A DNA stretch of 64,000 nucleotides from contig NZ_JAGTJK010000012.1 of the NCBI RefSeq assembly GCF_028435265.1, positions 102,900 through 166,899 on the forward strand. The letters are read 5' to 3'. This DNA comes from Polyangium jinanense. Its GTDB lineage: Bacteria; Myxococcota_A; Polyangia; Polyangiales; Polyangiaceae. The position numbers were made by a program, and so were the translations under genes. Within the stretch, counting starts at the first letter, position 1, and the number at the start of each line of letters is the position of its first letter. The notes under the pieces are model-generated. The model worked only from the letters and a program-made list of their open reading frames with translations. It did not search any database and was not told where the DNA came from. Positions 23,816-63,300 of the stretch are shown here, in pieces.

Positions 23816-25396
23816 ATGACCTCGCACCGTGCGCTCTCACCCTCGTCGAATGCTCGCCTTTGGGGCAACGGTGCCGCCCTGATGCTCGTGGGCGCTGCTG
23901 TGCGGTTTCTTCGGCTTGCGTTTCCGCTGCTCTTCGCTGTTTGCGTCTCGGTATGGCTCGTCGGGTGCGGGGCGGCGGGCGTGCGCGCGGAGGGATGGGC
24001 GCAGGAGCTCCAGGGCAAGAGCTTGTTTCGCGTCTGCCGGCGTCATCCCCGCGTCGGCCCGCATGCGCGCTACTGGTACGAGCTCGGGGACGGAGTGCAT
24101 CGACCGGCGTTCGAACCGCTCGAAAAGCTCCTGGAAAACCCTTCGGTCAAGGCCGTCTTCATCCATGACCCCCACGCGCCGCCCGAGAGCCGGAGGCTTT
24201 TGGGGCTCGCGTATCAGGATCTGCCCTGCGACAAGCCGCCGCCGCCGCCGCCGCCGCCGCCCGAGAAGATTGCGGCGGAAGAGCCGGAAGCCGGGCCGGC
24301 CAAGCGCACCACGGTCCGAACCGAGACGCGGACGTCGGCGATGAGGCCCTGCGAGAGGCCGCGCAAGAGGCCACCCGATCAGCGTTTCCTCGGGCAAACG
24401 GCGCCCACGCCCGCTCCGATGCCTGGGACGAGGGTGCCGTGTCCGCCGCCTCCTCCGGGGAAGACATACGAAGAACAGAAAGTCAACCTGGCGCGGAGGG
24501 ACGCCGAGGAGGAGGCGAGGCGCACGGGGGAGCGGATCGGGCGCGAGTGGGGGGCGACGCTCGGCAAGGCGGCTGGAGTGAAGGACTCCATCGACGTCAC
24601 GTATTTAGGAAACTTCGATTATGACATTCGGGACAAACCTGATGCCGAAGTCTTCGAAGTCATCCGGACCAATCTTGCCAAACAACTCGATGCAATCCCT
24701 GACCTGCCGACATACGACGACGAGCGGCTCGCCACGATCGCCTGGGAGGGCTTCCTCAAGGGGTATGGGCGAGGCTGGGCGGACGCCGAGCTGAAATTCG
24801 CGATCGTGAACGCCCTGGCGGACACCTTGTTGATGGTCGCCTCCGGGGGAGCGGCGGCCCTGGAGACCGTGGGGGCGAGGGTGCTGCGGGGCGCCCAGCA
24901 GAGGCTACGAAGTATGCCGGTGTTCCTGCCGAGCGCGGCGGGCGGACCGGGCGGGTTCTTGCGGCGGCCGAAGCTGCCGAGTCCGCCGGCCGCGAGCACG
25001 CCGAAGGCAGTGGCACCGCCCAGCGCGACGACAGTCACGACGACGACGAAGCCGGTCAGGGCGCCGAACGGCGCGGCGGGGCAGGCGGGGGCGCCGAAAA
25101 TTCGGAACCAGCACCTCGCGGGCAAGAACCACCCCAAGACCGGGGTGCCCTTCGATGCCGAGGGGTATCCGGATTTCAAGGCTGCTGGCGTCGTAAAAAG
25201 GGAGGTAAAGATCACCCAGACGGGGGACCGGCCTCATGATTACCGGCTCGCGAATGAGGCAGCGGGAGAGAAAGTAACGCCCAAAGACCATACGTGGCAC
25301 CATCACCAGGACGGGAAGACGATGCAGCTCGTGCCCACACAAATTCATGCGGACACAGGACATACCGGCGGGGTCGCAACGAAGGGGAGACCATGA
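23816..25396 (+). CDS. Polymorphic-toxin lipoprotein with a C-terminal HNH/EndoVII-fold nuclease domain (WHH / GH-E-like)
   Basis: A GGGAGGG RBS lies 7 nt upstream. The signal/lipobox reads FAVCVSVWLVGC. The middle is Pro-rich (PPPPPPPPP). The C-terminal ~100 aa reads HLAGKNHPKTGVPFDAEGYPDFK...DYRLANEAAG...HTWHHHQDGKTMQLVPTQIHADTGHTGG, the signature of the WHH/GH-E clade of HNH/EndoVII toxin domains. Confidence 0.75.
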   Translation: MTSHRALSPSSNARLWGNGAALMLVGAAVRFLRLAFPLLFAVCVSVWLVGCGAAGVRAEGWAQELQGKSLFRVCRRHPRVGPHARYWYELGDGVHRPAFEPLEKLLENPSVKAVFIHDPHAPPESRRLLGLAYQDLPCDKPPPPPPPPPEKIAAEEPEAGPAKRTTVRTETRTSAMRPCERPRKRPPDQRFLGQTAPTPAPMPGTRVPCPPPPPGKTYEEQKVNLARRDAEEEARRTGERIGREWGATLGKAAGVKDSIDVTYLGNFDYDIRDKPDAEVFEVIRTNLAKQLDAIPDLPTYDDERLATIAWEGFLKGYGRGWADAELKFAIVNALADTLLMVASGGAAALETVGARVLRGAQQRLRSMPVFLPSAAGGPGGFLRRPKLPSPPAASTPKAVAPPSATTVTTTTKPVRAPNGAAGQAGAPKIRNQHLAGKNHPKTGVPFDAEGYPDFKAAGVVKREVKITQTGDRPHDYRLANEAAGEKVTPKDHTWHHHQDGKTMQLVPTQIHADTGHTGGVATKGRP

Positions 25397-25397
25397 C

Positions 25398-25916
25398 ATG
25401 GAAATCACAGACCGCGGAGAACCTTTGAGCGAGCAGGCCCTCCGAGAGTTGGAGGAGAAGCTCGGCGTGCGCCTGCCCGAACCCTATCGCCGGTTTTTGC
25501 AAGAGTACAATGGAGGCCGGCCAGACCCGGACATACTCGACATCGCCGGAGCCCCCTTCAAGGGCGCGGACGTCCACGTATTCTTTGGCCTAGGACGAGA
25601 GTACGAATCCGAGGATCTCTTGTGGAACAATGAGGACTGGAAGCGGCCCAGCTTGGGCAATGATGTCCTCGCAATCGCGTGTGATTCAGGCGGAAGCCTC
25701 TTCGGCATCGTCACCGAGGGGGAGCAGCGAGGCCGCGTGTACTATTTCGACTACTATGCGGACTGGGAGCCCTACTTCGTCGCCAGCGACTTCGACGCGT
25801 TCCTCCAGAAACTGCGAGCGTGGACGCCCGAGGAGCTAGCCGAGATCAAAAAGCTCGCGGCGGAGAACGCGGCGGCGAACGCCGCGGAGCTTGACCCCGA
25901 CAAACCTGCCGAGTAG
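25398..25916 (+). CDS. SMI1/KNR4 (SUKH-1) family immunity protein
   Basis: The ATG lies 1 nt after the toxin stop, preceded by gaaggggaga. LSEQALRELEEKLGVRLPEPYRRFLQEYNGG...VLAIACDSGGSLFGIV...GRVYYFDYY...FVASDFDAFLQKL is the classic SUKH-1 pattern. Confidence 0.8.
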   Translation: MEITDRGEPLSEQALRELEEKLGVRLPEPYRRFLQEYNGGRPDPDILDIAGAPFKGADVHVFFGLGREYESEDLLWNNEDWKRPSLGNDVLAIACDSGGSLFGIVTEGEQRGRVYYFDYYADWEPYFVASDFDAFLQKLRAWTPEELAEIKKLAAENAAANAAELDPDKPAE

Positions 25917-25932
25917 GATTCGCGGCAGAGAC

Positions 25933-26616
25933 ATGGACGACCAACTCGACCTCGGTCCGGCGTACGCGCCGTCCGCCGCGTCGCCGCCCGCCGCGCCCCT
26001 CCCCAGCGTGGTCGCGCCCTACGAAAGGGTGGTGATGTTCTCTTTCCCGGTCGGCGTCGTGGTCGGGCTGGTTGTAGGCTCTGTGGAGTATCTCCGGTTC
26101 GCCTACGCGCTGAGCTTCTTCGATCCGGACAAGCTCCTCCCGTATTTCACGGGCATCGCCGTGCTCCGCGTGATAGGCCCCTCCAGCGCCATGATCGCCG
26201 CATCGATCACGGCGGTCCTCGTCCTTCATCGCGCCGGGCGCAGGGCAAGCGGACCCATCGAGATCGATCACGCGCGCGTGCTCCTCGTCCTGGCGGCGCT
26301 CCCACATCTCACGGTCGTGACGATGCCATTCTGCGTCCTCGGCGCCCTGCTGGTGTGGCTTGCAAGAACCGCGGGAGCCGTGACCGTGTTTTTGAAAGCC
26401 ATGCTCGACGTCGGGGTGATATGGACCCATTTCGCTTTCGGCCTGGCCTTCACCGCGCTCTGCGGGCTTTGGCTCACGTACCTGCTCCGCATCGGGGCAA
26501 ACTGGCTCACCACGAAGAAGCACGGCCTCGCCCTGAAGCTCTTCGTCGCATTCGCCTCGCTCGCCATACCCAATGCTGTTCTACGGGCTGTCCTTTCGCT
26601 CGTGGATCCGGTTTGA
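25933..26616 (+). CDS. Hypothetical polytopic membrane protein (~227 aa)
   Basis: ATG at 25933 (MDDQLDLG...), in frame with track ORF 25891..26616. About 5-6 hydrophobic helices. No family was recognised confidently; any MlaE-like resemblance is too weak to call. Confidence 0.5.
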   Translation: MDDQLDLGPAYAPSAASPPAAPLPSVVAPYERVVMFSFPVGVVVGLVVGSVEYLRFAYALSFFDPDKLLPYFTGIAVLRVIGPSSAMIAASITAVLVLHRAGRRASGPIEIDHARVLLVLAALPHLTVVTMPFCVLGALLVWLARTAGAVTVFLKAMLDVGVIWTHFAFGLAFTALCGLWLTYLLRIGANWLTTKKHGLALKLFVAFASLAIPNAVLRAVLSLVDPV

Positions 26617-26644
26617 GCCCGCTCTTCCGGTTGCACACCTCAGC

Positions 26645-26926
26645 TACCCAGCGGGTCGTCCTCAGCGAGCCGGCAGGCCGTCCTCGTCCTTCCGCAGGCC
26701 GTCGTCACCTACGCGGCAAGCCGTCCTCGTCCTTCCGTAGGCCGTTCTCATCTACGCGGCAGGCCGTCCTCACCTAACCGGAAGGCCGTCCTCACCTACC
26801 CGGCAGGCCGTCCTCGTCCTCCCGCAGGCCGTCGCCACCTACCCGGCAGGCCATCCTCAGCCTCCGAGAGCCTGGCCTCAGCGAGGCAAAAGCCCATCCT
26901 CGTCCTCCCGCACCCCGTCCTCAACC
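26645..26926. repeat. Non-coding array of ~13 degenerate tandem repeats (20-23 bp; alternating long/short units give a ~43-bp super-unit)
   Basis: Example units are tacgcggcaggccgtcctcacc, tacccggcaggccgtcctcgtcc and tcccgcaggccgtcgccacc, sharing the core GGCCGTC(C/G)TC. The array fills most of the 393-bp gap between 26616 and 27010. Stops interrupt the frames I read through the array and no track ORF spans it. Confidence 0.85.
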
Positions 26927-27009
26927 TCCGCCCCTGACGAGATCGTGCTGCCCCTGAAGGAAATATCCGGCGTCAGCGTCTCTCGCGCACCCCTAACCGG
27001 AGGTGCTCG

Positions 27010-27510
27010 ATGACGACGGATACGTTCTCTCCTTATGCTGGCCCTTATGATGTGACCCTCGCTGACGTGAAGGACGATCTCGTCGATCTCCCCGCTGGAT
27101 CCTCCAAGGGCTTCCGTGGCGTGCAGCCTGGCATCGAGGACGTCGTCGACGAGCTTGCCGGCGCCATTCCCGTGTTCGGTGATGCCGCGGGGATCCCCGC
27201 GAAGGTCTACGAGCGCTTCACCGTCGAGACGATGAGCATCGACGCCCTCACCAGGAAGGAGGCGCTCCTCGAAAAGATGCTCGAGGCCACCCGCGAGTCG
27301 AGGCGCCTCAAGGTCCACCAGCGCGAGAACACCATCGCCCAGATGGTCGACATCGCCAAGTCCACCGCCCAGCGCACCCGCAACAAGGGCATCCTCGCGC
27401 CCTTCGAGAAGACCGTCCGCTACAACGCCCAGACCGCGCTCAAGGCCGTGAAGACCCGCCGCAAGAACGAAGCCGCGAAAGCCGCGGCCACGTCAAGCCT
27501 CGAAAAGTAG
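27010..27510 (+). CDS. Hypothetical protein (166 aa), no signal peptide, immediately upstream of the T6SS operon
   Basis: A GGAGG RBS lies 7 nt upstream of the ATG. The N-terminal half is acidic. The C-terminal half is a Lys/Arg-rich helix (RKEALLEKMLEATRESRRLKVHQRENTIAQMVDIAKSTAQRTRNKG...). No family was recognised. Confidence 0.55.
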   Translation: MTTDTFSPYAGPYDVTLADVKDDLVDLPAGSSKGFRGVQPGIEDVVDELAGAIPVFGDAAGIPAKVYERFTVETMSIDALTRKEALLEKMLEATRESRRLKVHQRENTIAQMVDIAKSTAQRTRNKGILAPFEKTVRYNAQTALKAVKTRRKNEAAKAAATSSLEK

Positions 27511-27692: not shown

Positions 27693-28190
27693 ATGGGTTC
27701 GTGTAGGCACGCTCGGGGCGGAGCGAGGGGCAGGGCGCGATGGATCGCAGCGCTTGCCCTGGTCTTGCCTTTGGGCCTCGGGTGCTCCGCGGGTCCCCCG
27801 CCGACCCGGTTTCTCGTCGAGGTCGCAATCACCGCCAAGGCGAACCGGAATTCGCCCGTCCCCATGACCCTCGTCGCGGTCCAGGACGCGAAGCTCTTCG
27901 ACCAGATCATCAAGCTCACCGCCAAGCAGTGGTACGAGCAGCGCGAGCAGATGCGCCGGGATTTCCCGAGCGGCACCGCGTTCACCGAGTGGGATTGGGA
28001 ATTCGTCCCGGGCCAGGCCCCACCACCCATGGTCGTCGAGGTCGACGGCAAGGCCCTCGGCGCCGTCATCTTTGCAAACTACCGCTCGCCCGGCGATCAT
28101 CGCTTTCGTATTGGCCCGCAACGCCGGATGCGGGTCGACCTCGGCGACGACGACCTCGTCGTGAGCCCCCTCGATGCTCCGGAGGATTGA
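27693..28190 (+). CDS. tssJ: T6SS outer-membrane lipoprotein TssJ
   Basis: 165 aa with lipobox LPLGLGC. The fold pattern EVAITAKANRNSPVPMTLVAVQDAKLF...AVIFANYRSPGDHRFRI resembles SciN/TssJ. Its position directly 5' of tssK-tssL-tssM supports the call. Confidence 0.75.
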   Translation: MGSCRHARGGARGRARWIAALALVLPLGLGCSAGPPPTRFLVEVAITAKANRNSPVPMTLVAVQDAKLFDQIIKLTAKQWYEQREQMRRDFPSGTAFTEWDWEFVPGQAPPPMVVEVDGKALGAVIFANYRSPGDHRFRIGPQRRMRVDLGDDDLVVSPLDAPED

Positions 28191-41611: not shown

Positions 41612-44600
41612 ATGACGACTGCAGAACAGAGCCAGGGCGCCACGGAGAGCATTCCGAGCAAGCTCGGGAAGTTCGCCACGGAGCAGATCGACAAGGCCGA
41701 GGTCACGGTCACGAAGGGCGTCTCTACCGTCCGTGACTCCACGAACCAGATCATCAGCAAGGCCGAAGAGCAGATCCTCAAGCTCAACAAGGCCCTCTAC
41801 GAGACCAAGAACGGCATCTCGTCCGGCATCGACACGGCCATCAAGGAGACGGAAGGCCAGCTCAAAGGGATCACGCCCGAGCTCAAGAAGATGGGCGAGG
41901 ATGCGATCAAGACGGCCAAGGACAAACTCGACGGACTCGTCGACGAGGTCGAGGGCAAGCTCGAATCGCAAAAAGACTCGCTCGTCAAGACGGCGCAGGA
42001 TCAGATTCGGAACGCGGCCGATCAGGCGAAGGGCAAGATCGACGAGATCGGACAGCTCGGCGAGGATCAGGCGAAGAAGGTCCTCGATGCGGTCAAGACG
42101 CAGGCCGACACCGTCGATCAGAAGCTCGGCGATCTCGAGGGGCAGATCGACGGCAAGATCCAGGCGATCGGCGACGACGTGCGCGGCAAGTTCGAAGCGG
42201 CGCTCGCCAAGGTGCCGGATCACGACGGCGCGAAGGTCGAGATGTCGGCGAACGTCGACGCCGTCGTCGCGGAGCTGCGTAGTGCCACGAAGGACTCGAT
42301 CGAGCAGGCGCGCGAGACGCTCAAGTCGCTGGTCAAGCAGACCGACGACACGATCATGCAGACGATCGGCGACGTGCGGCGCGCGATCGGCGAGGTCCCC
42401 GCTCGCATCAACCAGTGTGCGCAGGACATCCTCGCGAAGGTCAATGACGCGATCCAGAAGACGATCGACGAGATCTCGAACCTCGCGCACGGGCTCGTGG
42501 CGCGCACGGCGGAGCTGCTCAACCAGGCGCTGCTCACGATCACGAGCACCGTCGACAAACTCCTCGCCGACGGCTTCGCGCTCGTGCGTGGGATCAAGGC
42601 GGATCTCGATCGTCTCCTCGACAAACTGCTCGAACAGATCCGGGATCTGACGCTCGGCACGCTGGAGGACGTCCGCAAGGCGGCGAACGAGCTACTCGGC
42701 ACGTTCGAGGCTGAATGCAAGAAGATCCTCCAGACGATGGAGGAGTCCGTCATCGGCTCGGTCGAGGAGCTCGGCGGCAAGATGAACGCCTCGATCAAGG
42801 CGCTCCAGGCCGACCTGAACCTCGATGCCGACAAGATCGTCCGGGACCTCGTGGCCGAGGGCGCGAAAGGGCACGACGACGCGCTCGCCGACTTCATCAG
42901 CGCTGGTTATTCCGAGGACACCTCGGTCATCCCCAAGATCCGGGCCAAGGGCGAGGCTGCGATCAAGCAGATCGAGGCCAAGACGAAGGCCCAAGGGGAG
43001 AAGCTGATCAAGGACTTCGAGATGCAGGCGACCCTGCTGAAGCCCAAGATCCAGGCGCAGGGTATCAAGGTCGTCGCGCAGATCGCCGCGCTCGGACCGA
43101 AGCTTGCGATGCAGGCGGTCCAGATTGCGACGAGCATCGCGTCGTCCATCAAGGACAAGGGCGAGGCGGTCAAGAAGACGTTCGAGGAGCTGCAAAAGAC
43201 GCTCGTCGACGCGATCACGAAGAAGATCCCCGATTACCTCGAAAACTGCAAGAAGCAGATCAAGGCCGCGGCCGATGCGCTCGTCGAGGCGGGCAAGACG
43301 TTCTACGAGAAGACGCTCGCCGACATCATGGGGGCGATCAAGGCGGCCGAGGCGCGGTTCAAGCAGCTTGCCTCGGAGATGAAGGACCTCATCGAGACGC
43401 AGGTCCTCGCGCTCGTGGCCTCCATTCGCAGGACGGTGGAGACGTCCATCCAGCGCTTCAAGGATCTCGGCGCCGCGTTCGAGGAAAAGACGAATGCGCT
43501 CGTCAACGACATCCCGGCGCGGCTCATCAAGCTGGAGCAGGTCGCGCGGCTCGCGGTCGAGCGCGAGATCACGCTGGCGAAGGGGCTCGCCAATGCGACG
43601 AAGGACGACATTCTCCTGAAGGCGCGGACGACGCTGTCGGAGATCAAAAAAGCGGCGTACGGGGTCCTCGGCGGCATCCGGGGCGATTTCGGCGCGGTGC
43701 AGGGATCGCTCGCGCTCATCGTCCCGGCGGGCGCGGGGCTCGACGCGGCGGGCGCGATCAACCTCGCGGTCTCGGGCGGGCTCGAAGGGATGATCGCGTC
43801 GGCGGCGAATGCGGCGCAGGCCGCGGTGACGGCGGGCGTGAATGCGGCCGAGGCCGTGAACAATGCAGCCGAGCAGGCGGCGGCCGCGATGAGCGCGGCT
43901 GGATTCGACGGCGCGGCGAAGTCATTGACGGACGTGCTCTCGCAGCAGATGGGCGAGGTGCGGACGGAGGGCGAGAAGGCCAAGAACGTCATTGCCGCGG
44001 CGAAGGAGAAGATGACGGCGGTCGCCAAGGAGGCGACGGACACCTGCACGCAGGCGGCGCAGGCGGCGCAGGCCGCGGCCGCGGAGGTCGTGGCGGCCGC
44101 GAATTCGACGGGCGACGCGATCAAGGCGTCGGCGGAGAACCTGACGAAGGGCCTCGAAAAGGCGAAGGACATCGTCAAGGATGCCGGCAAGGCCGCGATG
44201 CAATCGATGAAAGAGGCCCAGGACGTGCGCAAGGGAGGCGACGGCGCGCAAGCCGGCGCGGGTGCGCAGGCCAAGGCCGGCGGGGCGGATGGCGCGGCGG
44301 CGGGCGCGGATGCGGGCGGCGCGGATGGCTTGGCGGTGCCCGAGGGCGAGGCGGCGGCTCCGGAAGGGGAGGCGGCCGCGGCTCCGGGCGGCGCGGAGGC
44401 GGCTCCGGACGGCGCGGCGGCGGCTCCGGATGTCAAGGCAGCGGCTCCGGATGCCAAGGCGGCGGTTCCGGATGCCAAGGTGGCGGTTCCGGATGCCAAG
44501 GTGGCGGTTCCGGATGCCAAGGTGGCGGCTCCGGATGCCTCGAAATCGGCGCCGGATGTCCCGAAATCGGCGCCGGATGTCTCGAAACCGGAACTGGACG

Positions 44601-45289
44601 TCTCGAAACCGGAACCAGGCGCCGATGTAGCGGCGGTGGCCGCCAAGGTACCGGATCCGGCTGCCAAGGTAGCGGCTCCGGCCGCCAAGGTAGAGGTGCC
44701 GGCCGCCAAGGTAGAGGCGCCGGCCGCCAAGGTAGAGGCGCCGGCCGCCAAGGTAGAGGCGCCGGCCGCCAAGGTAGAAATTCCGGGCGCCCCGAAAGCG
44801 GCGCCGGCCGCCAAGGTAGAAATTCCGGCCGCCCCGAAGGCGGCGCCGGCCGCCAAGGTAGACATTCCGGCTGCCAAGGTAGACGTTCCGGCTGCCAAGG
44901 CGGTGCCCGGCGTGCCGGAAGGCAAGGCTCCGGCGCCCCCAGGCAAAGCTGCGATGCCGGAAGGCAAACCGCAGGTGCCCGAAGGCGGCATGCCCGGGGT
45001 GCCAAAAACCGGCGAAAAGCCCGCCTTTCCTCCCGCCCCCGCGCCTCAGGCCCCCGCGCCTCCCGCTCCGGCGGACGTGGCCCCCTTCGCGCCCGCGCCG
45101 AAGCCGCCGGCCGCGCCCGCCGTCCCTGCCGGCGCGAAACCCGCGCCCGCCGCGCCCGCCGCCCCCGTGATCCCTGCCGGCGCGAAACCCGCGCCCGCCG
45201 CGCCCGCGCCGCCCGCCACGCCCGCGGCCAAGCCCGTCGTTCCCGCCGCCCCCGGCAGCAAATGGCCTGGCAGCGGCAACAAGCCTTGA
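41612..45289 (+). CDS. Uncharacterised 1225-aa helical-repeat protein with a Pro/Ala/Lys-rich tandem-repeat C-terminus, last gene of the T6SS core operon
   Basis: It starts 53 nt after tssG on the same strand. No signal peptide or TM helix is evident. The first ~870 aa are K/E/D/A/Q-rich amphipathic-helix-like sequence (for example KAEEQILKLNKALYETKNGISSGIDTAIKETEGQLKGITPELKKMGEDAIKTAKDKLDGLVDEVEGKLES). The last ~350 aa contain AVPDAKV, SAPDV(P/S)K and PAAKVE(A/V/I) heptad repeats and then an AP-rich tail. No enzymatic motif was recognised. Confidence 0.75.
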   Translation: MTTAEQSQGATESIPSKLGKFATEQIDKAEVTVTKGVSTVRDSTNQIISKAEEQILKLNKALYETKNGISSGIDTAIKETEGQLKGITPELKKMGEDAIKTAKDKLDGLVDEVEGKLESQKDSLVKTAQDQIRNAADQAKGKIDEIGQLGEDQAKKVLDAVKTQADTVDQKLGDLEGQIDGKIQAIGDDVRGKFEAALAKVPDHDGAKVEMSANVDAVVAELRSATKDSIEQARETLKSLVKQTDDTIMQTIGDVRRAIGEVPARINQCAQDILAKVNDAIQKTIDEISNLAHGLVARTAELLNQALLTITSTVDKLLADGFALVRGIKADLDRLLDKLLEQIRDLTLGTLEDVRKAANELLGTFEAECKKILQTMEESVIGSVEELGGKMNASIKALQADLNLDADKIVRDLVAEGAKGHDDALADFISAGYSEDTSVIPKIRAKGEAAIKQIEAKTKAQGEKLIKDFEMQATLLKPKIQAQGIKVVAQIAALGPKLAMQAVQIATSIASSIKDKGEAVKKTFEELQKTLVDAITKKIPDYLENCKKQIKAAADALVEAGKTFYEKTLADIMGAIKAAEARFKQLASEMKDLIETQVLALVASIRRTVETSIQRFKDLGAAFEEKTNALVNDIPARLIKLEQVARLAVEREITLAKGLANATKDDILLKARTTLSEIKKAAYGVLGGIRGDFGAVQGSLALIVPAGAGLDAAGAINLAVSGGLEGMIASAANAAQAAVTAGVNAAEAVNNAAEQAAAAMSAAGFDGAAKSLTDVLSQQMGEVRTEGEKAKNVIAAAKEKMTAVAKEATDTCTQAAQAAQAAAAEVVAAANSTGDAIKASAENLTKGLEKAKDIVKDAGKAAMQSMKEAQDVRKGGDGAQAGAGAQAKAGGADGAAAGADAGGADGLAVPEGEAAAPEGEAAAAPGGAEAAPDGAAAAPDVKAAAPDAKAAVPDAKVAVPDAKVAVPDAKVAAPDASKSAPDVPKSAPDVSKPELDVSKPEPGADVAAVAAKVPDPAAKVAAPAAKVEVPAAKVEAPAAKVEAPAAKVEAPAAKVEIPGAPKAAPAAKVEIPAAPKAAPAAKVDIPAAKVDVPAAKAVPGVPEGKAPAPPGKAAMPEGKPQVPEGGMPGVPKTGEKPAFPPAPAPQAPAPPAPADVAPFAPAPKPPAAPAVPAGAKPAPAAPAAPVIPAGAKPAPAAPAPPATPAAKPVVPAAPGSKWPGSGNKP
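44420..44900 (+). repeat. In-frame 21-bp tandem repeat blocks inside the 1225-aa gene
   Basis: Block 1 (~44420..44625) has units like gcggttccggatgccaaggtg and ggcgccggatgtcccgaaatc. Block 2 (~44655..44900) has units like ccggccgccaaggtagaggcg. Several adjacent units are identical. Confidence 0.85.
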
Positions 45290-53990: not shown

Positions 53991-54665
53991 CTAGAGCCCG
54001 TACACCTTCGCGAGCGCCTTCTGCGTCGTCGCGTCGTACTTGCCCGTCACGGAGATCTTTTCGGCGCGCTGGAAGGCCTCGATCGCCGCGGTCGTCGCCT
54101 CGTCGAGCGTGCCGCTCGGCTCGTCGGCATGAAGCCCGAGGTTCTTGAGGCGCGTTTGCGCCCCGCGGATCGTGTCGATCGGCTCGAGCTCGCCGAGCGC
54201 GAGCTTGTACGTTTGTCGCCGGTTCGGCAGCTTCAGCACCGCCTCGGCCTGATCCGCCGGCACCTCGGCTTCCAGTGTCCCGTCGTCCCCTGTCGTCCCC
54301 TCGAGCTTGCGCTCGCCGCACTCGATCTCCCAGGGCTCGTTCGCGAGCGGCTCCTGGCCCGCGGTGAGCTTCAGGTAGACCCGGACCTTTTCGCGCTTGA
54401 CCACGAACCTGTGCGACTTGCCCGTCTCGATCGGCGACGGCTTCGGCTTCGGCTGCGGCACCGTCACCTTGTCGCCCGGCGCGAGCACGTTCGGATCCTT
54501 GCGCAGCTTGCGCAGCGCCGCGTTCTCCGGCGCCTCCCATACCGTCTTCCACGGAAGACCGTATTTCGCCGCGATCGTCGCGATGCACTCCCCCGCCTGG
54601 ACGTCGTGTGTCGTGCCTGCCATGGCGATTCCCAGGCGATGATACACGTCGCGCTGTCCGATCAC
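53991..54665 (-). CDS. LysM plus PG_binding_1 peptidoglycan-binding protein with a central beta-rich module
   Basis: The LysM domain reads THDVQAGECIATIAAKYGLPWKTVWEAPENAALRKLRKDPNVLAPGDKVTVP. The C-terminal IRGAQTRLKNLGLHADEPSGTLDEATTAAIEAFQRAEKISVTGKYD is PG_binding_1-like. A GTG at 54665 overlaps the upstream stop (GTGA); an alternative ATG is at 54623. No signal peptide. Confidence 0.75.
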   Translation of the reverse strand: MIGQRDVYHRLGIAMAGTTHDVQAGECIATIAAKYGLPWKTVWEAPENAALRKLRKDPNVLAPGDKVTVPQPKPKPSPIETGKSHRFVVKREKVRVYLKLTAGQEPLANEPWEIECGERKLEGTTGDDGTLEAEVPADQAEAVLKLPNRRQTYKLALGELEPIDTIRGAQTRLKNLGLHADEPSGTLDEATTAAIEAFQRAEKISVTGKYDATTQKALAKVYGL

Positions 54666-56206
54666 TCCATCAAAAAGCCCATCCGCGCAAAGCGCAGGAG
54701 CTTCTGCTCGGTGATCTCGGCGAACACCTCCGCATCCGTGCAGGGCGCGCCGTTCATCTCCACCGACACCACACAGCGACGCGCGTCCTCGAGCGCCGCC
54801 TCCGTGAGCGCCGAAGCGTCACGCGTCCCATCCATGCGCGCGAGGATCGCCCGATCGAACGTGTCGACCTGCACGCCCTCGTGCAGGAGCGTGGTGCAAA
54901 ACGGGCTGCCCACGCTCGCCTGATAACGCGCGAACGGGAAGACGCGCGGGCGCTCGGCGGGCGCCTGGGCCACGGGCTTTGGCGAGGCCCAGAGCCGGAT
55001 CGCGCCTTTCGTGTAGAGCCCGAGGAGGTTTCGCGCGAGCCGCGCCCGCGCCTCGCCCTCGAACGCCGCGAGCCCGAGCTTCTCGCCGGTTTGCCACGCG
55101 AGCGCGTCGAACGGGAGCCCGCCGGGCGTGTATTCGGAGAGCGTGACGAGCGCGGCCTTGAGCGTGGCCTGATCGGTGCCGATCGCCCCGCCTGGCCCGA
55201 TGAACGTTTCCTCCACGCCCTCGGCGAGGTTTGGCGCCGTGACCCCCGGCGCGAGCGGCGAGGCGAGCACGAGCGAAAAGATTCGATCGGCCGAGACGCG
55301 GGGCGAGAGCGGGGCGTCGTCGCGGCAAAGGACGGCGCGGCGAAAACACCGGAGCTCGAGGAGGTCGAGCGATTGCTGGAGGGAGACGAGGTCGCCACTG
55401 CCTGCCCGCGCCCGGACGGCCTCGTCGGCGGCGGGCCCGAGGCGCTCGGGAAACACGAGCGGCACGTGGGCGTCGGTGACGAACGCGAGCCCCGCGCCTT
55501 CCATGTCGCGGACGAAGTCGGCGAAATACTCGGCGTGGTTGTTCGGGGCGAGGTGCTCACCGATCAGGTAGTGGTCCGAGAGCTCGGCGAGGGTTTGCAG
55601 CTCGCTCGCGAGCCAGGCGCGCGTGGGATCGGAGCCTGTGGCCTCGGTGCCGAGGAAACGCAAAAAAGCGCGCGCCTTCGCGACGCGCTCGGCGGCGGAT
55701 CCTTCCGTGCCGACCTCACGCCGTAGCATGTCGCGGATCGCGCCGCGCAGGTGCCAGCCGGGCAAGGTATTGAAGCTGATGTAGGCGAGGCCGTGGGGCG
55801 CGAGGTGCCGGCGGACGACGCGGCGAATGGCTTCGCGGGCGTCGTCGGGGACCCACGAGTAGACGCCGTGGCAGACGATGTAATCGAAGGAGCCGGGTTC
55901 GTCCTCGAATTCGCGGATGTCGGCGAGGTGGAGGGCGAGGTTTGCGAGCCGGGCGCCCTCGGCGTGTTTTCGAGCGACGGCGAGCGAGTCTTCGGCGCGA
56001 TCGAGGGCGACGAAGCGGCTCTCGGGGAAGGCGGCGGCCATGGGAAGGACGTTGCCGCCGGTGGCGGTGCCGATCTCGAGGACGCGGCATCGAGCGGGCG
56101 GGGCGGGCCGGAGGCCAAAGAGGACGCCGATCGCGCCGAGGTGGTCGGGGTGCGTCTCGGCGAAGGGCAGGGCCTCGTAGAAATAATCCTCGTTCGCGTC
56201 GGCCAA
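54662..56206 (-). CDS. Class I SAM-dependent methyltransferase fused to a C-terminal methyltransferase-regulatory-type domain (~514 aa)
   Basis: Track ORF 54662..56902 is trimmed; its first ~230 codons are the antisense of the coiled-coil gene. A TTG at 56206 is preceded by GGAGGA with a 5-nt spacer. YEALPFAETHPDHLGAIGVLFGLRPAPPARCRVLEIGTATGGNVLPMAAAFPESRFVALD is motif I (E.G...G). The C-terminal ~300 aa resemble the predicted methyltransferase regulatory domain family. Confidence 0.75.
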   Translation of the reverse strand: MADANEDYFYEALPFAETHPDHLGAIGVLFGLRPAPPARCRVLEIGTATGGNVLPMAAAFPESRFVALDRAEDSLAVARKHAEGARLANLALHLADIREFEDEPGSFDYIVCHGVYSWVPDDAREAIRRVVRRHLAPHGLAYISFNTLPGWHLRGAIRDMLRREVGTEGSAAERVAKARAFLRFLGTEATGSDPTRAWLASELQTLAELSDHYLIGEHLAPNNHAEYFADFVRDMEGAGLAFVTDAHVPLVFPERLGPAADEAVRARAGSGDLVSLQQSLDLLELRCFRRAVLCRDDAPLSPRVSADRIFSLVLASPLAPGVTAPNLAEGVEETFIGPGGAIGTDQATLKAALVTLSEYTPGGLPFDALAWQTGEKLGLAAFEGEARARLARNLLGLYTKGAIRLWASPKPVAQAPAERPRVFPFARYQASVGSPFCTTLLHEGVQVDTFDRAILARMDGTRDASALTEAALEDARRCVVSVEMNGAPCTDAEVFAEITEQKLLRFARMGFLME

Positions 56207-56312
56207 GCGCGTCCTCCGGAAGGGCCGCCACCTTGGCGGGATCGGGAGGCGGGCGCAAGTGTTTGCCTTGAAGGGCCTGCCTGCCCCATGCTGGGCGCGC
56301 GCCGGTGCGCGT

Positions 56313-57233
56313 ATGGATGGGCTCTCGTTGATTCTGGTCGCGGTGGTCTGCGCGCTCGCGCTCGTGATCGGAGTGCTTTTGCGATCACGAGGCGCGCTCG
56401 CGCGGGAGCTCGGGGCCGCGCGGGAAGAGGCGCGGGCGCTCGGGAAAGCCGCCGCCGAGGCGAAGCGGGCTCTGCCGCAGGCGGAGGCGGAAGCGGGAGC
56501 GGCGGCGGCAGCGGAGGCGGCGGCGGCAGCGGAGGCGGCGGCGGCAGCGGAGGCGCGCGCGAGATCCGCGGAGCTGGAAAGCGAGCTCCGGGAAGCGCGC
56601 GAGCGGTCCGAAGAGCTGTCCCGAGTGGTCGGGGAGGCGCGCAAGAGCGCCGAAGAGCTGTCCCGAGACGTCAGGGAGGCGCGCAAGAGCTCCGAAGTGC
56701 TGTCCCAAGAGGTCGGGGAGGCGCAAAAGAGGTCCGAAGAGCTGTCCCGCGACGTCGGGGAGGCTCGCAAGAGCTCCGAAGCGCTGTCCGGAGAGCTCCG
56801 GGAGGCGCGCGCAAGGGCCGAGGCGCTCGAACGTGAGCTCGCCGAGGCCCGCAGCAAGACCGATGACAGGGGAGGGGACCTCGCCGCCGCGATGCGCCGC
56901 ATCGAGGAGCTTTCGCGCGCCTATCGGCAAGCCGAGCAGGACGTCGAGGCCCTCTCGATACAAAAGGACGCCTTTGCCGCCGAGGTGCGCGCCCTCAGGG
57001 ACGAACTCGAGCGCCGCAAGAAGGCCGCGGAGGCCGCAGCCGCCGTCGAAGGAAAACCGCTCGCCGCGCCGCCGTCCCGGCAGCCAGCCAAGAAGCCGCC
57101 GCCGCCCGAGCCTATCACCGCGTTTTTCTGTCTCATTTGCGGGGAGGGGAGCTCGGGGGCAAAGCCGCACCGCTGCCTCGTCGAGGAGGCGGAGCTCGCG
57201 AAGAAGAAAGCTGCGGCGACAGTGAAGCGGTAG
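56313..57233 (+). CDS. Membrane-anchored coiled-coil protein with 14-aa tandem repeats and a C-terminal Cys/His cluster (~306 aa)
   Basis: ATG at 56313 (MDGLSLILVAVVCALALVIGVLL is the TM anchor). An (AAAAEA)3 tract is followed by 7 repeats of the form EELSRDVGEARKSS. The C-terminus reads FFCLICGEGSSGAKPHRC. Confidence 0.65.
   Translation: MDGLSLILVAVVCALALVIGVLLRSRGALARELGAAREEARALGKAAAEAKRALPQAEAEAGAAAAAEAAAAAEAAAAAEARARSAELESELREARERSEELSRVVGEARKSAEELSRDVREARKSSEVLSQEVGEAQKRSEELSRDVGEARKSSEALSGELREARARAEALERELAEARSKTDDRGGDLAAAMRRIEELSRAYRQAEQDVEALSIQKDAFAAEVRALRDELERRKKAAEAAAAVEGKPLAAPPSRQPAKKPPPPEPITAFFCLICGEGSSGAKPHRCLVEEAELAKKKAAATVKR
56568..56861 (+). repeat. Seven in-frame 42-bp tandem repeats
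   Basis: The units start at 56568, 56610, 56652, 56694, 56736, 56778 and 56820. An example is gaagagctgtcccgagacgtcagggaggcgcgcaagagctcc. Confidence 0.85.
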
Positions 57234-57346: not shown

Positions 57347-60300
57347 ATGACGCGGCGGACCGGGTACTCCTTGCTGGGGCTCTTGATGGCGGCGATGACC
57401 ATCCTGAGCTGCACCACGATCCTCGGCATTGATACCGAGAGCGACGAGAACCCGTGCAGCGCCGGGGACCTGCCGCCGCTCGAGTGCGGCGTCGGCGCCT
57501 GCCGCACGATCCGGCCCGCGTGCGTGAACGGCCTGCCGATGACCTGTCCGCCCGTCGACTCCCAGGCCGACGAGATCTGCGACGGCATCGACAACAACTG
57601 CGACGGGCTCATCGACGAGGGGTGTCCCTGCATGGAAGGGGCGGTCCAGAGTTGTTATAGCGGCGCGCCCCTCACCCGGAACGTCGGTATCTGCGTCACC
57701 GGCATCCAGACCTGCACGAACGGCATCTGGCTCGATTGCACCGGCGAGGTGCTACCGGGCCTCGAGAACTGCGACGACAGCTTCGACAACGATTGCAACG
57801 GCAAGGTCAACGACAACTGCGCCTGCACCGAGGGGCAGACCCGCAAGTGTTACGGCGGCCCGCCGATCACGCAGGGCGTCGCGAACTGCAAGGAAGGTGA
57901 TCAGACCTGCCTGAACGGCTTCTGGGGCGACTGCAAGGCGGACGTCATCCCCGGCGGCGAGGTCTGCGACGGCGTCGACAACAACTGCGATGGCGCCATC
58001 GACGAGATTTCCGGCTGCGAGTGCTCCGGGGATCAGACGAAGGAGTGTTACACGGGCGACGACAAGTTCGTCGGCATCGGCGTCTGCAAGAAGGGGTATT
58101 ACCCCTGCAAGGGCGGCAAGTTCGACGAGACGAAGTGCCTGACCGAGGTGCTCCCCGGCGCCGAGGTCTGCAATGGCCTCGACGACGATTGCAACGGCCT
58201 GCCCGACGACGCGATGGGCCTCGGCCTCGATTGCACGACGAAGCTGCCCGGCATCTGCAAGTTCGGCAAGACGGATTGCGGCATCGACGAGGAGACGGGC
58301 AAGCCGGGCACGATCTGCACGCCCGACGTCAAGCCCTTCCAGAACCCCGAGCAGGGCTGCAACCTGGTCGACGACAACTGCGACGGCGTCATCGACGAGG
58401 GCGTCCTCTGCTGCCCGGAAGACGGCATTCAGAACGGCAGCGAGACCGACGTCAACTGCGGCGGCACCTGCGTGATCAAGTGCCCCGACGGCAAGAAGTG
58501 CAACACGGGCGACGACTGCGTCTCGCAGGTCTGCGTGAGCGGCATCTGCGTCGGCGACACGTGCGACGACGCGACGGAGAACGGCACGGAGACGGACGTC
58601 GATTGCGGCGGCTCCGCCTGCCCCGGCTGCCAGCCCACGAAGAACTGCGAGTACGGGTCCGACTGCCTCTCGAACGTGTGCGTCGGCGGCAAGTGCCAGG
58701 CGCCGACCTGCTTCGACGGCGTGGAGAACGGTAACGAGAGCGACAAGGACTGCGGCGACGCCTGCAAGCCTCTGCTCTGCGTCAACCTCCAGAATTGCAA
58801 CAGCGCGCTCGATTGCGTGAGCCTCTCCTGCAAGGACAAGGTCTGCCAGGCGGCGACCTGCGGCGACACCACGAAGAACGGCAGCGAGACGGACATCGAT
58901 TGCGGCGGTGGCCAGTGCCAGGGCTGCGGCACGGGGCAGGGCTGCAACGTCGGCGCCGATTGCAAGGAGAAGGTCTGCGGGGCGAACAAGACGTGCCTCG
59001 CGCCGACGTGCACCGACAGCGCGGCGAACGGGCAGGAGACGGACGTCAACTGCGGCGGCCCCGACTGCGTCGCCCGCTGCGACACGGGCCAGAAGTGCCT
59101 CGTGGCGACCGACTGCCAGAGCAAGATCTGCACGAACAACATCTGCGCCCCCTCGCAGTGCACGGACTTCGTGCAGAACGGGACCGAGACGGACGTCGAT
59201 TGCGGCGGCGGTTGTCCGGAGAAATGCGACCCGTCCGAGAAGTGCAAGACCAACGTCGACTGCAAGAGCGACGTCTGCACGGGCGGCATCTGCCTTTCGC
59301 CGACCTGCTCGGACAACAAGAAGAACGGCGCCGAGACGGACCTCGACTGCGGCGGCCCGTGCGTGCAGGAGCAGAAGAAGTGCTCGGACGGCAAGCAGTG
59401 CCAGTTCGCCGGCGACTGCCAGAGCGGCGTCTGCACGGGCGGCATCTGCGTGCCCGCGCAGTGCAACGATCAAACGAAGAACGGCAACGAGACGGACATC
59501 GACTGCGGCGGCGGCCTGCCCTGCCAGGCCTGTGACATCGGCAAGAATTGCCTGAACGCCATCGACTGCAAGACGAACATCTGCTCGGCCGGCAAGTGCG
59601 CGCCGAAGCCGATCGGCGAGTTCTGCCTCTCGGCGCTCGAGTGCGCGAGCGGCAACTGCGTCGACGGGTTCTGCTGCAACAGCTCCTGCGACGGCACCTG
59701 CTTCGCGTGCTCGGCCGCCAAGAAAGGCCAGGGCAACAACGGCTTCTGCCAGGCGATCGTCGGCAACGCCGATCCGGACAACGAGTGCGCGTCGGACAAC
59801 CCGAGCAGCTGCGGCAACACGGGCTTCTGCAACGGCGCCGGGGCGTGCGCGAAATACAGCAATAGCGTCGAGTGCGTGGTGGCGACGTGCAAGGACATCA
59901 CGACGGCGAAGCTGCCGCAGTTCTGCAACGGCAACGGCGCGTGCCTGACGAGCGCCGAGCAGTCGTGCGTGCCGTACACGTGCAGCGCCGGCCAGTGCAA
60001 CACGAGCTGCGCGATCGACGCGCAATGCGCGGGCGGGTACTACTGCAACAATAGCCAGTGCATTCCGAAGGGCACCATCAGTTCGTCGTGCCAGACGAAC
60101 AACCAGTGCGCGAGCGGCAACTGCGTCGACGGCGTCTGCTGCGACTCGGCCTGCACGGGCACCTGCTACGCGTGCTCGGCGGGCAAGAAGGGCCAGGGTA
60201 GCGACGGCATCTGCGGGCCGGTCGTGAACAACGGAGACCCCGACAACGAGTGCGCGACGACGTCGATCGCGAGCTGCGGGACGACGGGCGTCTGCGACGG

Positions 60301-63300
60301 CACGGGCAAATGCGCCCTGCACCCGAACGGCGCCCCCTGCGCCGCGGCGGAGTGCCTCAACGCGACGACCCTGAGCCCGAGCTCGACCTGCAACGGCTCC
60401 GGCACCTGCACGGCCACGTCGCAGATCTCGTGCGCGCCATACCTCTGCAAGAACAACGCGTGTTCGAGCACGTGCGTGGGCGACGTGGACTGCGCGACGG
60501 GCAACTACTGCCTGCTTTCGTCTTGCCAGGCGAAGAAGGCGGACGGCAACTCGTGCATTGGCAACAACGAGTGCGCGAACGGCAACTGCGTCGACGGCGT
60601 CTGCTGCAACAACGCGTGCACGGGCCTCTGCCAGGCCTGCTCGGCGGGCAAGAAGGGCAGCGGCGCGGACGGTACGTGCGGGCCGATCGCGAACGGCCAA
60701 GACCCCGACAACGATTGCATGGACGGCCAGTGCGCGGACAGCACCACGCTCAACGTGACGCAGGTCTGCAACGGCGCGGGTGCGTGCAAGGCCGGGGTCA
60801 CGGCGAGCTGCACGCCCTACGTGTGCGCGCCGGGCGTCTCCTGCCCGACGACGTGCACGAGCGACGCAAACTGCGCGTCGACGCATTATTGCAACGCCTC
60901 GAACCAGTGCGTCTCGAAGAAGGCGACGGGACAGACCTGCACGAACCCGACCGGCAACGAGTGCACGAGCGGCAACTGCGTCGACGGCTATTGCTGCAAT
61001 GAGGCGTGCGCGGGGACGTGCCGGGCGTGCTCGATCGCGGCGGGCGCGGCGACGAACGGCTCCTGCGCGAACATCCAGAACGGCGGCACGGACGCGAACC
61101 CGGTCTGCGGCGGGCTCAACACGTGCGACGGCGGGGGCGTCTGCAAGAAGGCGCTCGGTCAGGCGTGCGGCGTGGGGAGCGATTGCTCGAGCGGTTTCTG
61201 CGCGGACGGCGTCTGCTGCAACGAGGCGTGCGGCGGGACGTGCCGGGCCTGCACGCTGGCGAAGAAGGGCGCCGGGACCGACGGGCAATGCGGCAACATC
61301 GCGTCGGGCAGCACGGATGACGCGCCCGTTTGCGGCGGCGCGAACGTGTGCGACGGGACCGGCGCGTGCAAGAAGAAGATGGGCGAGGCTTGCGTCGTCG
61401 GGACGGAGTGCGTGAGCGGCTCCTGCGTCGACGGCGTTTGCTGCAGCTCGGGGTCGTGCTCGACGTGCCAGACCTGCAACAAGAACATCATGACCGCCGG
61501 CACGTGCCAGAACATCAACGCCGGCACGACGGACAACAACCCCGTCGGCGCCTGCACCGGCACGAACACCTGCGACGGGAGCGGGACCTGCAAGAAGAAC
61601 GACGGGCAGGTCTGCGGGAACGCCAGCGAATGCCTGAGCGGCAACTGCGTGGACGGGGTCTGCTGCAACGGCACGTGCACCGGTGAATGCCAGGCGTGCT
61701 CGGTGGCGGCGGGCGCCGCGACGAACGGCGTTTGCGGCAACATCACGTCGGGCCAGCCCGACAATTACCCCGCGAACACGTGCGCCGCGCCGAAAGCCTG
61801 CGACGGCGGCGGGGTGTGCAAGAGCGCGAATGGCATCGTGTGCGCGACGGGCAGCGACTGCGTCACCGGCAACTGCGTGGACGGGGTCTGCTGCGACACC
61901 TCGTGCACCGGCGTCTGCAAGGCGTGCTCGGTGGCGAAAGGCGCCGCGGCGAACGGCGTCTGCGGGAACATCGCGCCGGGCAGCACGGACGACGCGCCCG
62001 TCTGCGGTGGCTCGAACGTCTGCAACGGCAGCGGCGCGTGCCTGAAGACGAAGGGCGAGGTGTGCTCGACGGCCTCCGAGTGCGCGAGCGGCGCGTGCGT
62101 CGACGGGGTTTGCTGCACGGCGATGGCCTGCGGGTCGTGCCAGACCTGCAACAAGAACATCATGCTCGCCGGCACCTGCACGAACATCGACAGCGGTCAG
62201 CCGGACAATTTCCCGGCGGGCAACTGCACGGGGACGAACGTGTGCGACGGCGCCGGCGTGTGCAAGGAGCTGAACGGCAGCGCGTGCTCCACGGCCGGCG
62301 AGTGCTTCAGCGGCAACTGCATCGACGGGTTCTGCTGCGACTCCGCGTGCAACGGCACCTGCCGGACGTGCGCGGCGGCATCGGGCGCGCCGGCAAACGG
62401 CACGTGCGGCAACGTCACGTCGGGCACGCAGGACACGGTCCCGGCGAACGCCTGCACCGGGACGAACGTGTGCGACGGTACGGGCACATGCAAGAAGTCG
62501 AACGGCGCGGTGTGCGGCGCGGGGAACGAATGCCTGAGCGGCAACTGCGTGGACGGGGTCTGTTGCAACAGCACGTGCACGAGCACCTGTCAGGCGTGCT
62601 CGGCGGCGGCGAAGGGGCAAGGCTCGGACGGCACGTGCGGCAACATCGTGTCGGGCATGCAGGACAACGTCGCGGCGAGCACCTGCGTCGGGATGAACGC
62701 GTGCAACGGCTCGGGCGTCTGCAAGGAGACGAATGGCTCGGCGTGCTCGACGACCGGCGAATGTTTGAGCAACTTCTGCGCGGACGGGGTCTGCTGCAAC
62801 GCGGCATGCACGGGCACCTGTGATGCCTGTTCGATCGCGGCCGGCGGGACCACGGACGGCACGTGCGGCGACATGATCCCCGGCCTGGAGGACACGAACG
62901 CGACGACTGTCTGCAGCGGCGCGAACGCGTGCGGGCCGAGCGGCACGTGCGTCAACAACAAGAAGGAAAATGGCCAGTCTTGCACCATGGCGAACGACTG
63001 CGCCTCGGGGCAATGCGTCGAGGGGGTCTGCTGCAACTCGGCGTGCACTGGCACGTGCCAGTCGTGCAGCGTGACGGGCAATGTCGGTATGTGCTCGCCG
63101 ATCCCGGCAGGACAGCCGGACAACGTGCCAGCGAACACGTGCACGGGGACGAGCGCCTGCGACGGCGCGGGCACCTGTGAAAAGGCCAATGGCCAGACCT
63201 GCTCGACGCCCGACGAATGCGGCAGCGGCAATTGCGTGGACAACGTCTGCTGCAACTCGTCGTGCAACGGGGTCTGCCAGGCGTGCAATACCGCCGGAAA

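Follow-up and report, generated by a model that had tools for sequence, protein, structure and literature searches.

A phased array of 21-22-bp direct repeats accompanying an unannotated gene family in polyangial myxobacteria: a candidate region for cooperative protein binding

Helically phased arrays of protein-binding sites have been described at plasmid origins and centromeres and at a small number of virulence promoters. Plasmid iterons, such as the seven 22-bp repeats of the R6K gamma origin and the four 22-bp repeats of pPS10, are direct repeats of ~20-22 bp with helical phasing, a core and a variable flank, and they sit beside the promoter of a neighbouring gene whose expression the bound protein autoregulates. 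The partition centromeres parC of plasmid R1, which comprises 10 repeats of 11 bp bound by ParR and contains the promoter of its operon, and sopC of plasmid F, which comprises 12 repeats of 43 bp, are long phased arrays on which a protein filament or solenoid is assembled. In type III toxin-antitoxin loci (ToxIN, CptIN, and TenpIN), pseudoknot-forming units of 34-40 nt are followed by a terminator and by a gene of ~170 codons on the same strand for a ToxN/AbiQ endoribonuclease, and the repeats differ between members. At the Bordetella pertussis promoters Pptx and Pfha, the NarL/FixJ-type regulator BvgA binds cooperatively toward the core promoter at sites with a 22-bp centre spacing, six BvgA dimers being placed 22 bp apart on one helical face with the last one abutting the -35 element (PMC7250471). 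Here we report the analysis of a repeat array of similar spacing in a stretch of 64,000 nucleotides from Polyangium jinanense (contig NZ_JAGTJK010000012.1, assembly GCF_028435265.1), referred to below as the window, where 13 units precede a gene whose 166-aa product belongs to a family without annotation and, behind it, a type VI secretion system (T6SS) cluster. Arrays of the same period were found upstream of homologues of this gene in unrelated neighbourhoods. We propose, as a reading with an even chance of being correct, that the array is a cis-acting element offering one recognition core per two helical turns for cooperative protein binding, and that it controls the adjacent gene. In the literature searched we found no description of a chromosomal array of 13-17 units travelling with one uncharacterised family through a bacterial class, and the array together with the gene appears to be an undescribed module.

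The array makes up about three quarters of the intergenic region 26617-27009, between an open reading frame (ORF) for a 241-aa membrane protein and the ORF for the 166-aa protein, within DNA whose GC content is 0.62-0.69 throughout 26500-27100. The elements of direct concern are as follows.

26632-26934, no strand assigned: tandem repeat array of 13 clear head-to-tail units, with a degenerate 14th unit in the first position
26935-27009, + strand: segment between the array and the start codon, presumed from the alignment of relatives to contain the core promoter and a short leader
27010-27510, + strand: gene for the 166-aa protein of an unannotated family, the only gene consistently tied to such arrays

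Tandem Repeats Finder (TRF) recovered the array at 26638-26923, with a period of 22 (10.3 copies) and with a period of 43 (4.7-6.2 copies, scores 253-260), the latter outscoring the former, and a repeat search of the array gave spacings of 43, 43, 44, 43, and 43. In each unit a 10-bp core, GGCCGTCCTC, is conserved, and the 11-12 bp behind it vary more. With up to three mismatches to GGCCGTCCTC allowed, 13 cores start at positions 26654, 26676, 26697, 26719, 26740, 26762, 26784, 26806, 26827, 26849, 26870, 26892, and 26913, so that successive spacings are 22, 21, 22, 21, 22, 22, 22, 21, 22, 21, 22, and 21 bp, with a mean period of 21.6 bp; the degenerate unit (26632-26653) matches at ~15 of 22 positions in a hand alignment. 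Two unit types, A (GGCCGTCCTCACCTACCCGGCA, 22 bp) and B (GGCCGTCCTCGTCCTCCCGCA, 21 bp), mostly alternate, which gives rise to the 43-bp super-period. At no more than one mismatch the core occurs 36 times in the window, compared with 16.0 +/- 4.2 times in shuffled sequences, none of 100 of which reached 36; nine of the 36 matches lie inside the array, all on the + strand, and the excess in the window is the array itself.

A preliminary description of the region, made from the sequence alone, had noted about 13 tandem repeats with a shared core recurring roughly every 21.5 bp and an alternation of long and short units with a 43-bp super-period, and these observations are borne out by the values above. 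The same is true of its statement that this is not a clustered regularly interspaced short palindromic repeat (CRISPR) array: the units are contiguous, and in place of unique spacers the variable half is of two recurring types. It had also stated that no ORF spans the array, in agreement with the ORF list of the window, and a coding array was rejected on the ground that the mixed 21/22-bp spacing breaks every reading frame.

We then compared the DNA upstream of genes encoding homologues of the 166-aa protein in 11 distinct loci, with four further loci inferred from ORF artefacts. A tandem array or periodicity of 21-22 bp is present upstream of the homologue in 10 of the 11; the arrays include four degenerate ones, and the case of one locus, L135, is unconvincing. 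The closest relatives are L001 (P. jinanense), L002 (Polyangium sp. 15x6), L003 (P. spumosum), L004 (Polyangium sp. 6x1), L005 (Polyangium sp. y55x31), and L006 (a Polyangiaceae metagenome-assembled genome), and in all six the family gene is preceded by ~370-450 bp of non-coding, periodic DNA. L002 contains 13 units like those of the window array, the array of L003 comprises 14 units of CATCCTCCCGC-AGGCTGATTT (21/22 bp; TRF, 21 bp x 13.3), and L006 has 14 units of CGACGACTTCGCCAACCAACG (21 bp; TRF, 21 x 12.7). The arrays of L004 and L005 are degenerate, with TCCTC/GAGGA motifs ~22 bp apart and autocorrelation peaks at 22, 43, and 65. Five further lineages (L128, L129, L132, L135, and L138) encode proteins 24-42% identical to that of the window, among neighbours that are mutually unrelated and include no T6SS genes. 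Among these, L132 has 16.6 copies of the 22-bp unit GACTTCCGGCCGGTGGTCGACA with 93% matches, L129 has three consecutive 22-bp sub-arrays of 7.5, 5.8, and 3.0 copies that reach the contig end, and L128 shows 21-bp and 63-bp periodic repeats over ~315 bp (TRF, 21 x 5.6 plus 63 x 2.3). L138 has no array detectable by TRF, and its four strongest autocorrelation lags are 42, 63, 21, and 85; L135 shows only C-rich low-complexity DNA and one 20-bp repeat of 2.5 copies. In many cases the contig stops a few hundred bases before the family gene begins, as is expected if assemblies break in repeats.

Mis-called N-terminal extensions of four family ORFs (P0033, P0057, P0111, and P0161) display 7- and 14-residue periodicity, which identifies them as the translation of a 21-bp array. 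Database gene calls that translate arrays comprise a 119-aa 'gene' at L006:5587-5946 and N-terminal extensions of 100-200 residues; judged from the sequences, such calls are annotation artefacts of frames that stay open in GC-rich 21-bp repeats. Recognition of the arrays provides a handle on an unannotated protein family and corrects an annotation artefact, namely translated arrays and extensions of up to ~200 residues.

In a TRF background of 170 kb, comprising the window and the loci, all listed arrays of at least four copies whose period or super-period is not a multiple of 3 lie upstream of a family gene. The L006 and L128 arrays are listed there at 21, 42, and 63, and the other listed arrays have periods of 15, 18, 21, 27, or 42, all multiples of 3; from their location inside long ORFs the latter are taken as coding repeats. 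Equivalent arrays occur with no T6SS nearby in L006, L128, L129, L132, L134, and L138. Judged by this distribution, the array belongs to the 27010 gene and not to the T6SS, and the first gene of the Polyangium T6SS cluster would be a passenger with its own control region and not a T6SS component.

Period and length of the arrays are kept, and their sequence is replaced, which is an unusual pattern. All clear arrays have a mean period of 21.0-22.0 bp (window, 21.6; L003, 21.4; L006, 21.2; L129, 21.9; L132, 21.9; L128, 21.0), the copy number is 13-17 or more, and the array length is about 290-460 bp. Within arrays, identity reaches 80-100% in a block of 10-11 columns and 40-70% in the remaining half; in a permutation test this clustering of conserved columns gave P=0.007 for the window, 0.0006 for L003, and 0.03 for L006, and was not significant for L128. 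In a circular comparison of unit consensus sequences, the window agrees with L003 and L005 at 15-18 of 21 positions, at or above almost all shuffles. The idea of a single short motif common to all arrays was rejected, consensus likeness being confined to Polyangium. A scan of genome contigs with the pattern GGCCGTCCTCN{11,12}GGCCGTCCTC returned at least 120 chance matches from unrelated GC-rich genomes, with no Polyangium among the matches listed. The units of the window, L002, and L003 are purely direct repeats with no dyad. The conserved block of several other relatives holds DNA dyads: CGACGAnnTCGTCG in L006, CCGGCCGG and GTCGAC in L132, GCACTcggcAGTGC in L129, and CGTCCTC-n-GAGGACG in L004/L005. 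In several of these the loop is only 0-2 nt, too short for an RNA hairpin, and such dyads would be typical of binding sites for dimers. Between the window and L001, the one strain pair compared, the array is the same 13 units long and aligns without gaps, with two substitutions in 290 bp (0.7%), and the flanking segments differ by ~0-1.8%; the comparison of array length between strains that the preliminary description had suggested therefore finds an array that is not hypervariable on this timescale.

The window array ends 75 bp before the ATG of the 27010 gene, a distance of 68-75 bp across Polyangium species. The intervening segment 26935-27009 contains GACGAGATCGTGCTGCCCCT, with an ACGAnnTCGT dyad conserved in five Polyangium species, followed by CGCGCACCCCTAACC, and a GGAGG Shine-Dalgarno sequence stands 7 nt before the ATG. 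In the alignment of Polyangium loci, the conserved order is GACGA(G/C)(A/T)TCGTGCT(G/C)CCCC, then CGCGCACCCCTA, then GGAGG. A terminator scan of 26617-27010 found no terminator-like site between array and gene. The more distant loci L128, L129, L132, and L134/L135 have an AT-rich A6-8TT stretch roughly 100-150 bp before the ATG, as estimated from the alignment, followed by CCTTGCAC or CTTGACA and, ~17 bp later, by a TATAcc-like hexamer; the -35 hexamers read in L128, L129, L132, and L134 are TTGCAC/TTGACA and lie between array and gene. Assigned by eye, this arrangement looks like an UP element with a strong sigma-70-type promoter, which would probably put the arrays of L128, L129, L132, and L134 ahead of the promoter. 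The periodic region of L138 reaches up to a TTGACC hexamer. The loci of the window type lack both the A6-8TT promoter and the conserved leader of the distant members. That leader, of ~100-150 nt with conserved blocks (GCGCAC..., GGTCTATCTGGAGGCATCCG...), was seen at L128:5820-6003, L129:700-892, L132:5800-6003, and L134/L135, and this conserved 5' untranslated region could itself be a regulatory RNA. Genes for extracytoplasmic function (ECF) sigma factors lie near the family gene in two unrelated loci, directly downstream and convergent in L129 (1453-2013) and, three genes away together with a putative anti-sigma factor, in L006 (8641-9291); this proximity may be a coincidence or a hint at a sigma factor that reads these promoters.

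The 166-aa protein is 99% identical to its P. jinanense counterpart in L001, and six database relatives of the window protein were found. A profile search of 1.84 billion representative proteins placed 240 clusters (50% identity) in the family at E <= 1e-3 and 151 at E <= 1e-10, most members being 160-200 aa long, and a second family search returned only the name 'hypothetical protein' or evidently spurious automatic names. The named sources are Polyangium, Polyangiaceae, and Haliangium only, and the rest are metagenomes (soil metagenomes). The family gave nothing meaningful against Pfam, NCBIfam, PADLOC, PHROGs, or PDB sequences, and no relatives were found in viral contigs. In metagenome contigs, the broad family alignment offered no usable conserved stretch, and the narrow one led to a single incomplete locus, L127, with no upstream DNA. 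An AlphaFold2 model of the 166-aa protein (mean predicted local distance difference test score 84.7, from a 74-sequence alignment) predicts that an ordered, extended stretch of 40 N-terminal residues is followed by a short helix and then by a long helical hairpin (helices 64-123 and 126-162). The second helix, which contains the best-conserved motif, KAxKTRRKN, is basic (net charge of +5 over 31 residues). Taken with the acidic character of the rest of the protein described below, this charge pattern is not decisive for or against nucleic-acid binding. At L132:2020-2110, 4 kb ahead of the intact gene, there is a C-terminal piece of another family member (YDKLHAYRSAVGHKAAKTPRRNEA...), apparently a decayed paralogue, which hints at duplication or movement of the module.

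In the mechanism that we favour, the 10-bp cores recurring every 21-22 bp would all face one side of the helix, with a less constrained spacer between them. A sequence-specific protein would bind the cores cooperatively along ~300 bp, and the resulting nucleoprotein filament or solenoid would reach the presumed core promoter just downstream and set the transcription of the 27010 gene, whether by activation or by repression. Read-through could, in Polyangium, also affect the tssJ-K-L-M operon behind this gene. The binding model is supported by the combination of a conserved core and a variable half, by the linkage to one gene amid neighbours that differ in each lineage, and by the stability between strains. 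The general class named in the preliminary description, a phased protein-binding array, still fits best on account of the core and variable half; the particular members of that class that it suggested fare worse, as set out below. Because the unit sequence is replaced between genera while the association with the gene is fixed, the binder would have to change its specificity along with the array, which would be easiest if the binder were encoded in cis and makes the family protein a candidate for autoregulation. Within the binding model, binding by the family protein itself and binding by a lineage-specific trans-acting factor appear roughly equally likely. A documented parallel for the geometry is the BvgA array, whose 22-bp spacing the window array shares; the window array ends 75 bp before the ATG, ahead of a presumed promoter. 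The BvgA arrays consist of 3-6 weak and dissimilar sites, each an inverted pair of heptads for a dimer, whereas here there are 13-17 near-identical direct repeats and the window units have no dyad; the array here accompanies one gene family and not a regulon, and a candidate regulator gene was not found nearby.

Several observations weigh against this reading. No transcription factor gene was found beside the array or in the T6SS cluster of the window. An AraC-type gene abuts the array in L003 alone, and an AraC-type regulator, whose monomer covers ~21 bp, was dropped as the general binder on this account and because the window has no homologue. The number of sites, 13-17, is far larger than known activator arrays use. 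A sigma-70 consensus scan of the intergenic region of the window gave no promoter match, and ~170-430 bp separate the array from the putative promoter or the gene in L128, L129, and L132. No similarity of unit sequence between genera was detectable by circular consensus comparison, although a conserved pair of regulator and operator would usually show some. Overall, the family is acidic (median isoelectric point, 5.2), with a net charge of -5 in the N-terminal part and an acidic low-complexity tail, and its protein matched no known DNA-binding fold, whether ribbon-helix-helix (RHH), helix-turn-helix (HTH), or other. We found no expression or binding data for any family member in the literature searched.

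The alternatives differ mainly in what the array would be for. It is possible, though on balance unlikely, that the 166-aa protein is a novel coiled-coil DNA-binding protein that polymerises on its own array of 13-17 sites, so that gene and array form an undescribed, self-contained polyangial module with a structural role in DNA organisation, anchoring, or titration on top of plain autoregulation. The family gene is the sole constant partner of the arrays, array and protein diverge together, with likeness between units where the proteins share 70-79% identity and none at <=53%, the array length is kept at ~300 bp or more, and the basic helix is conserved; if this explanation were true, the specificity of the protein and the repeat core would co-evolve lineage by lineage, and the result would be a chromosomal nucleoprotein structure like ParR-parC without the partition motor, serving autoregulation, titration, or local DNA organisation. 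Against this, conservation of the protein is highest in the basic motif, whereas the DNA cores lack conservation; the protein, as noted above, is acidic and has no recognisable DNA-binding fold; and there is no gene for a partner nucleoside triphosphatase (NTPase) near the array in the window or at L001-L006. We consider it improbable that the array is a functionless satellite, a variable number tandem repeat (VNTR) that arose through slippage or unequal crossing-over, was made uniform by concerted evolution, and is simply tolerated in this intergenic region. Such an origin would suit the complete turnover of unit sequence between genera, the higher-order periods of 43, 63, and 65 bp, which point to amplification of multimers, the 93% homogeneity of L132, which suggests recent amplification, and the decayed state of L004, L005, L135, and L138. 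It would not explain why arrays of the same period and similar length recur upstream of one family at 25-50% protein identity, why the period of every array listed elsewhere in the 170 kb is a multiple of 3, or why mismatches concentrate in one half of the unit; the difference in copy number between strains that marks a VNTR was absent from the one pair compared, the window and L001.

An array acting as RNA, whether as a type III antitoxin, as a sponge for an RNA-binding protein through GGA motifs of the minus strand, or as a CCUCC leader that masks the GGAGG, seems to us distinctly improbable. As in ToxIN-type loci, the array lies directly upstream of a gene for a protein of ~170 aa on the same strand; its + strand is C-rich with repeated CCTC/CCTCC, its minus strand has GAGGAC every 21.5 nt, and the arrays of several relatives fold far better than shuffled sequences (z -4 to -11). 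However, the strongly negative scores arise because the conserved block contains a DNA dyad, and the dyads with 0-2-nt loops could not form RNA hairpins. The window itself showed no folding signal against shuffles on either strand, for the intergenic region (z -0.63 and -0.35) or for the array alone (z -0.5 and -0.1), and Rfam gave no match to the array, the best E values (0.46-6.7) all being far under the gathering scores and belonging to eukaryotic long non-coding RNA, microRNA, and small nucleolar RNA models, with a weak cis-regulatory PhotoRC-I match (13.1 vs 45 bits). L006 lacks the GGA and CCUCC motifs, which are not common to the lineages, and the probable position of the array upstream of the promoter in L128, L129, L132, and L134 argues in the same direction. 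In contrast to type III loci, the units are 21-22 bp long, no terminator was found between array and gene, and the protein is a predicted all-helical hairpin without a ToxN/AbiQ match in Pfam or PADLOC. Finally, a plasmid iteron origin, a partition centromere, and a T6SS-specific enhancer, the first two suggested outright and the third as a T6SS regulatory platform in the preliminary description, are together highly improbable. The 13 direct repeats phased at a mean of 21.6 bp and their conserved core resemble iterons as well as sopC and parC, and the 43-bp super-period echoes sopC. Yet the array has 2-4 times more copies than iterons; no Rep initiator gene (winged-helix, Rep_3-like) adjoins it, its 166-aa neighbour being a predicted helical hairpin; the GC content of at least 0.62 across the region leaves no AT-rich unwinding element; and no DnaA box is near, the closest TTATCCACA-like sites (<=1 mismatch) being at 38976 and 48439. 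As for a centromere-binding adaptor, the 166-aa neighbour, a small helical protein that has a single basic helix, would be a candidate at most, and neither an RHH nor an HTH fold was detected in it; genes for ParA, ParM, or TubZ NTPases were found neither around the array in the window nor in any of the related loci, and adenylosuccinate synthase, pseudouridine synthase, HSP20, and UvrD genes as neighbours indicate a module on chromosomes beside housekeeping genes. An enhancer for the T6SS would suit the four Polyangium species (window/L001 to L004) in which the gene directly precedes tssJ-K-L-M, but not L005, where two other genes intervene, and not the loci listed above that have arrays and no T6SS.

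The arrangement of neighbours, with a toxin-immunity island upstream and the 27010 gene and tssJ operon downstream, is as first described. The flanking features are these.

23816-25396, + strand: WHH/colicin-DNase toxin gene, upstream of the array
25347-25916, + strand: SUKH immunity protein gene, upstream of the array
25891-26616, + strand: ORF for the 241-aa membrane protein, directly upstream of the array region
27693-28190: gene for a 165-aa lipobox protein, TssJ-like, the TssJ assignment resting on position

Downstream, the order is the 166-aa gene, TssJ-like, TssK, TssL, TssM, and TssA, then TssB, TssC, Hcp, TssE, TssF, and TssG, with VgrG farther on. The homologue stands directly before tssJ-K-L-M in L001 to L004, is separated from the T6SS (tssJ) by two other genes in L005, and has no T6SS gene within 6 kb in L006. 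The upstream neighbours differ in nearly every species and include toxin islands, an AraC-type gene, a lipoprotein, and a 1207-aa protein. Since the position of the array relative to the gene is kept across species while these neighbours all differ, the suggestion that the array is the relic of a mobile-element boundary does not hold up. Relative to L001 and L002, the WHH toxin and SUKH pair (23816-25916) forms a variable island: in L002 the WHH gene is cut down to 133 aa, the SUKH protein is another one, and all that is left of the membrane ORF is a remnant (window 26466-26497 joined to 26630), and L003-L005 have entirely different genes at this position.

Three further repeat regions of the window lie within ORFs. 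Long tandem repeats of 21 bp (and 63/84 bp) at 44332-44986 belong to a 1225-aa ORF (41612-45289) that follows tssG in the T6SS cluster. Their period is divisible by 3, which makes coding heptad repeats the most likely reading; the encoded protein has only sub-threshold matches to apolipoprotein-like helical repeats (61.7 vs a 90-bit cutoff). Tandem repeats of 42, 84, and 126 bp at 56549-56853, in a 746-aa methyltransferase-domain ORF on the minus strand (54662-56902), presumably encode a linker of 14-residue repeats. A 225-bp tandem repeat of 2.2 copies at 60958-61445 lies in a 2092-aa ORF (57347-63625), and its consensus, Cys-rich in translation (CxxGxC...), suggests a repeated extracellular domain.

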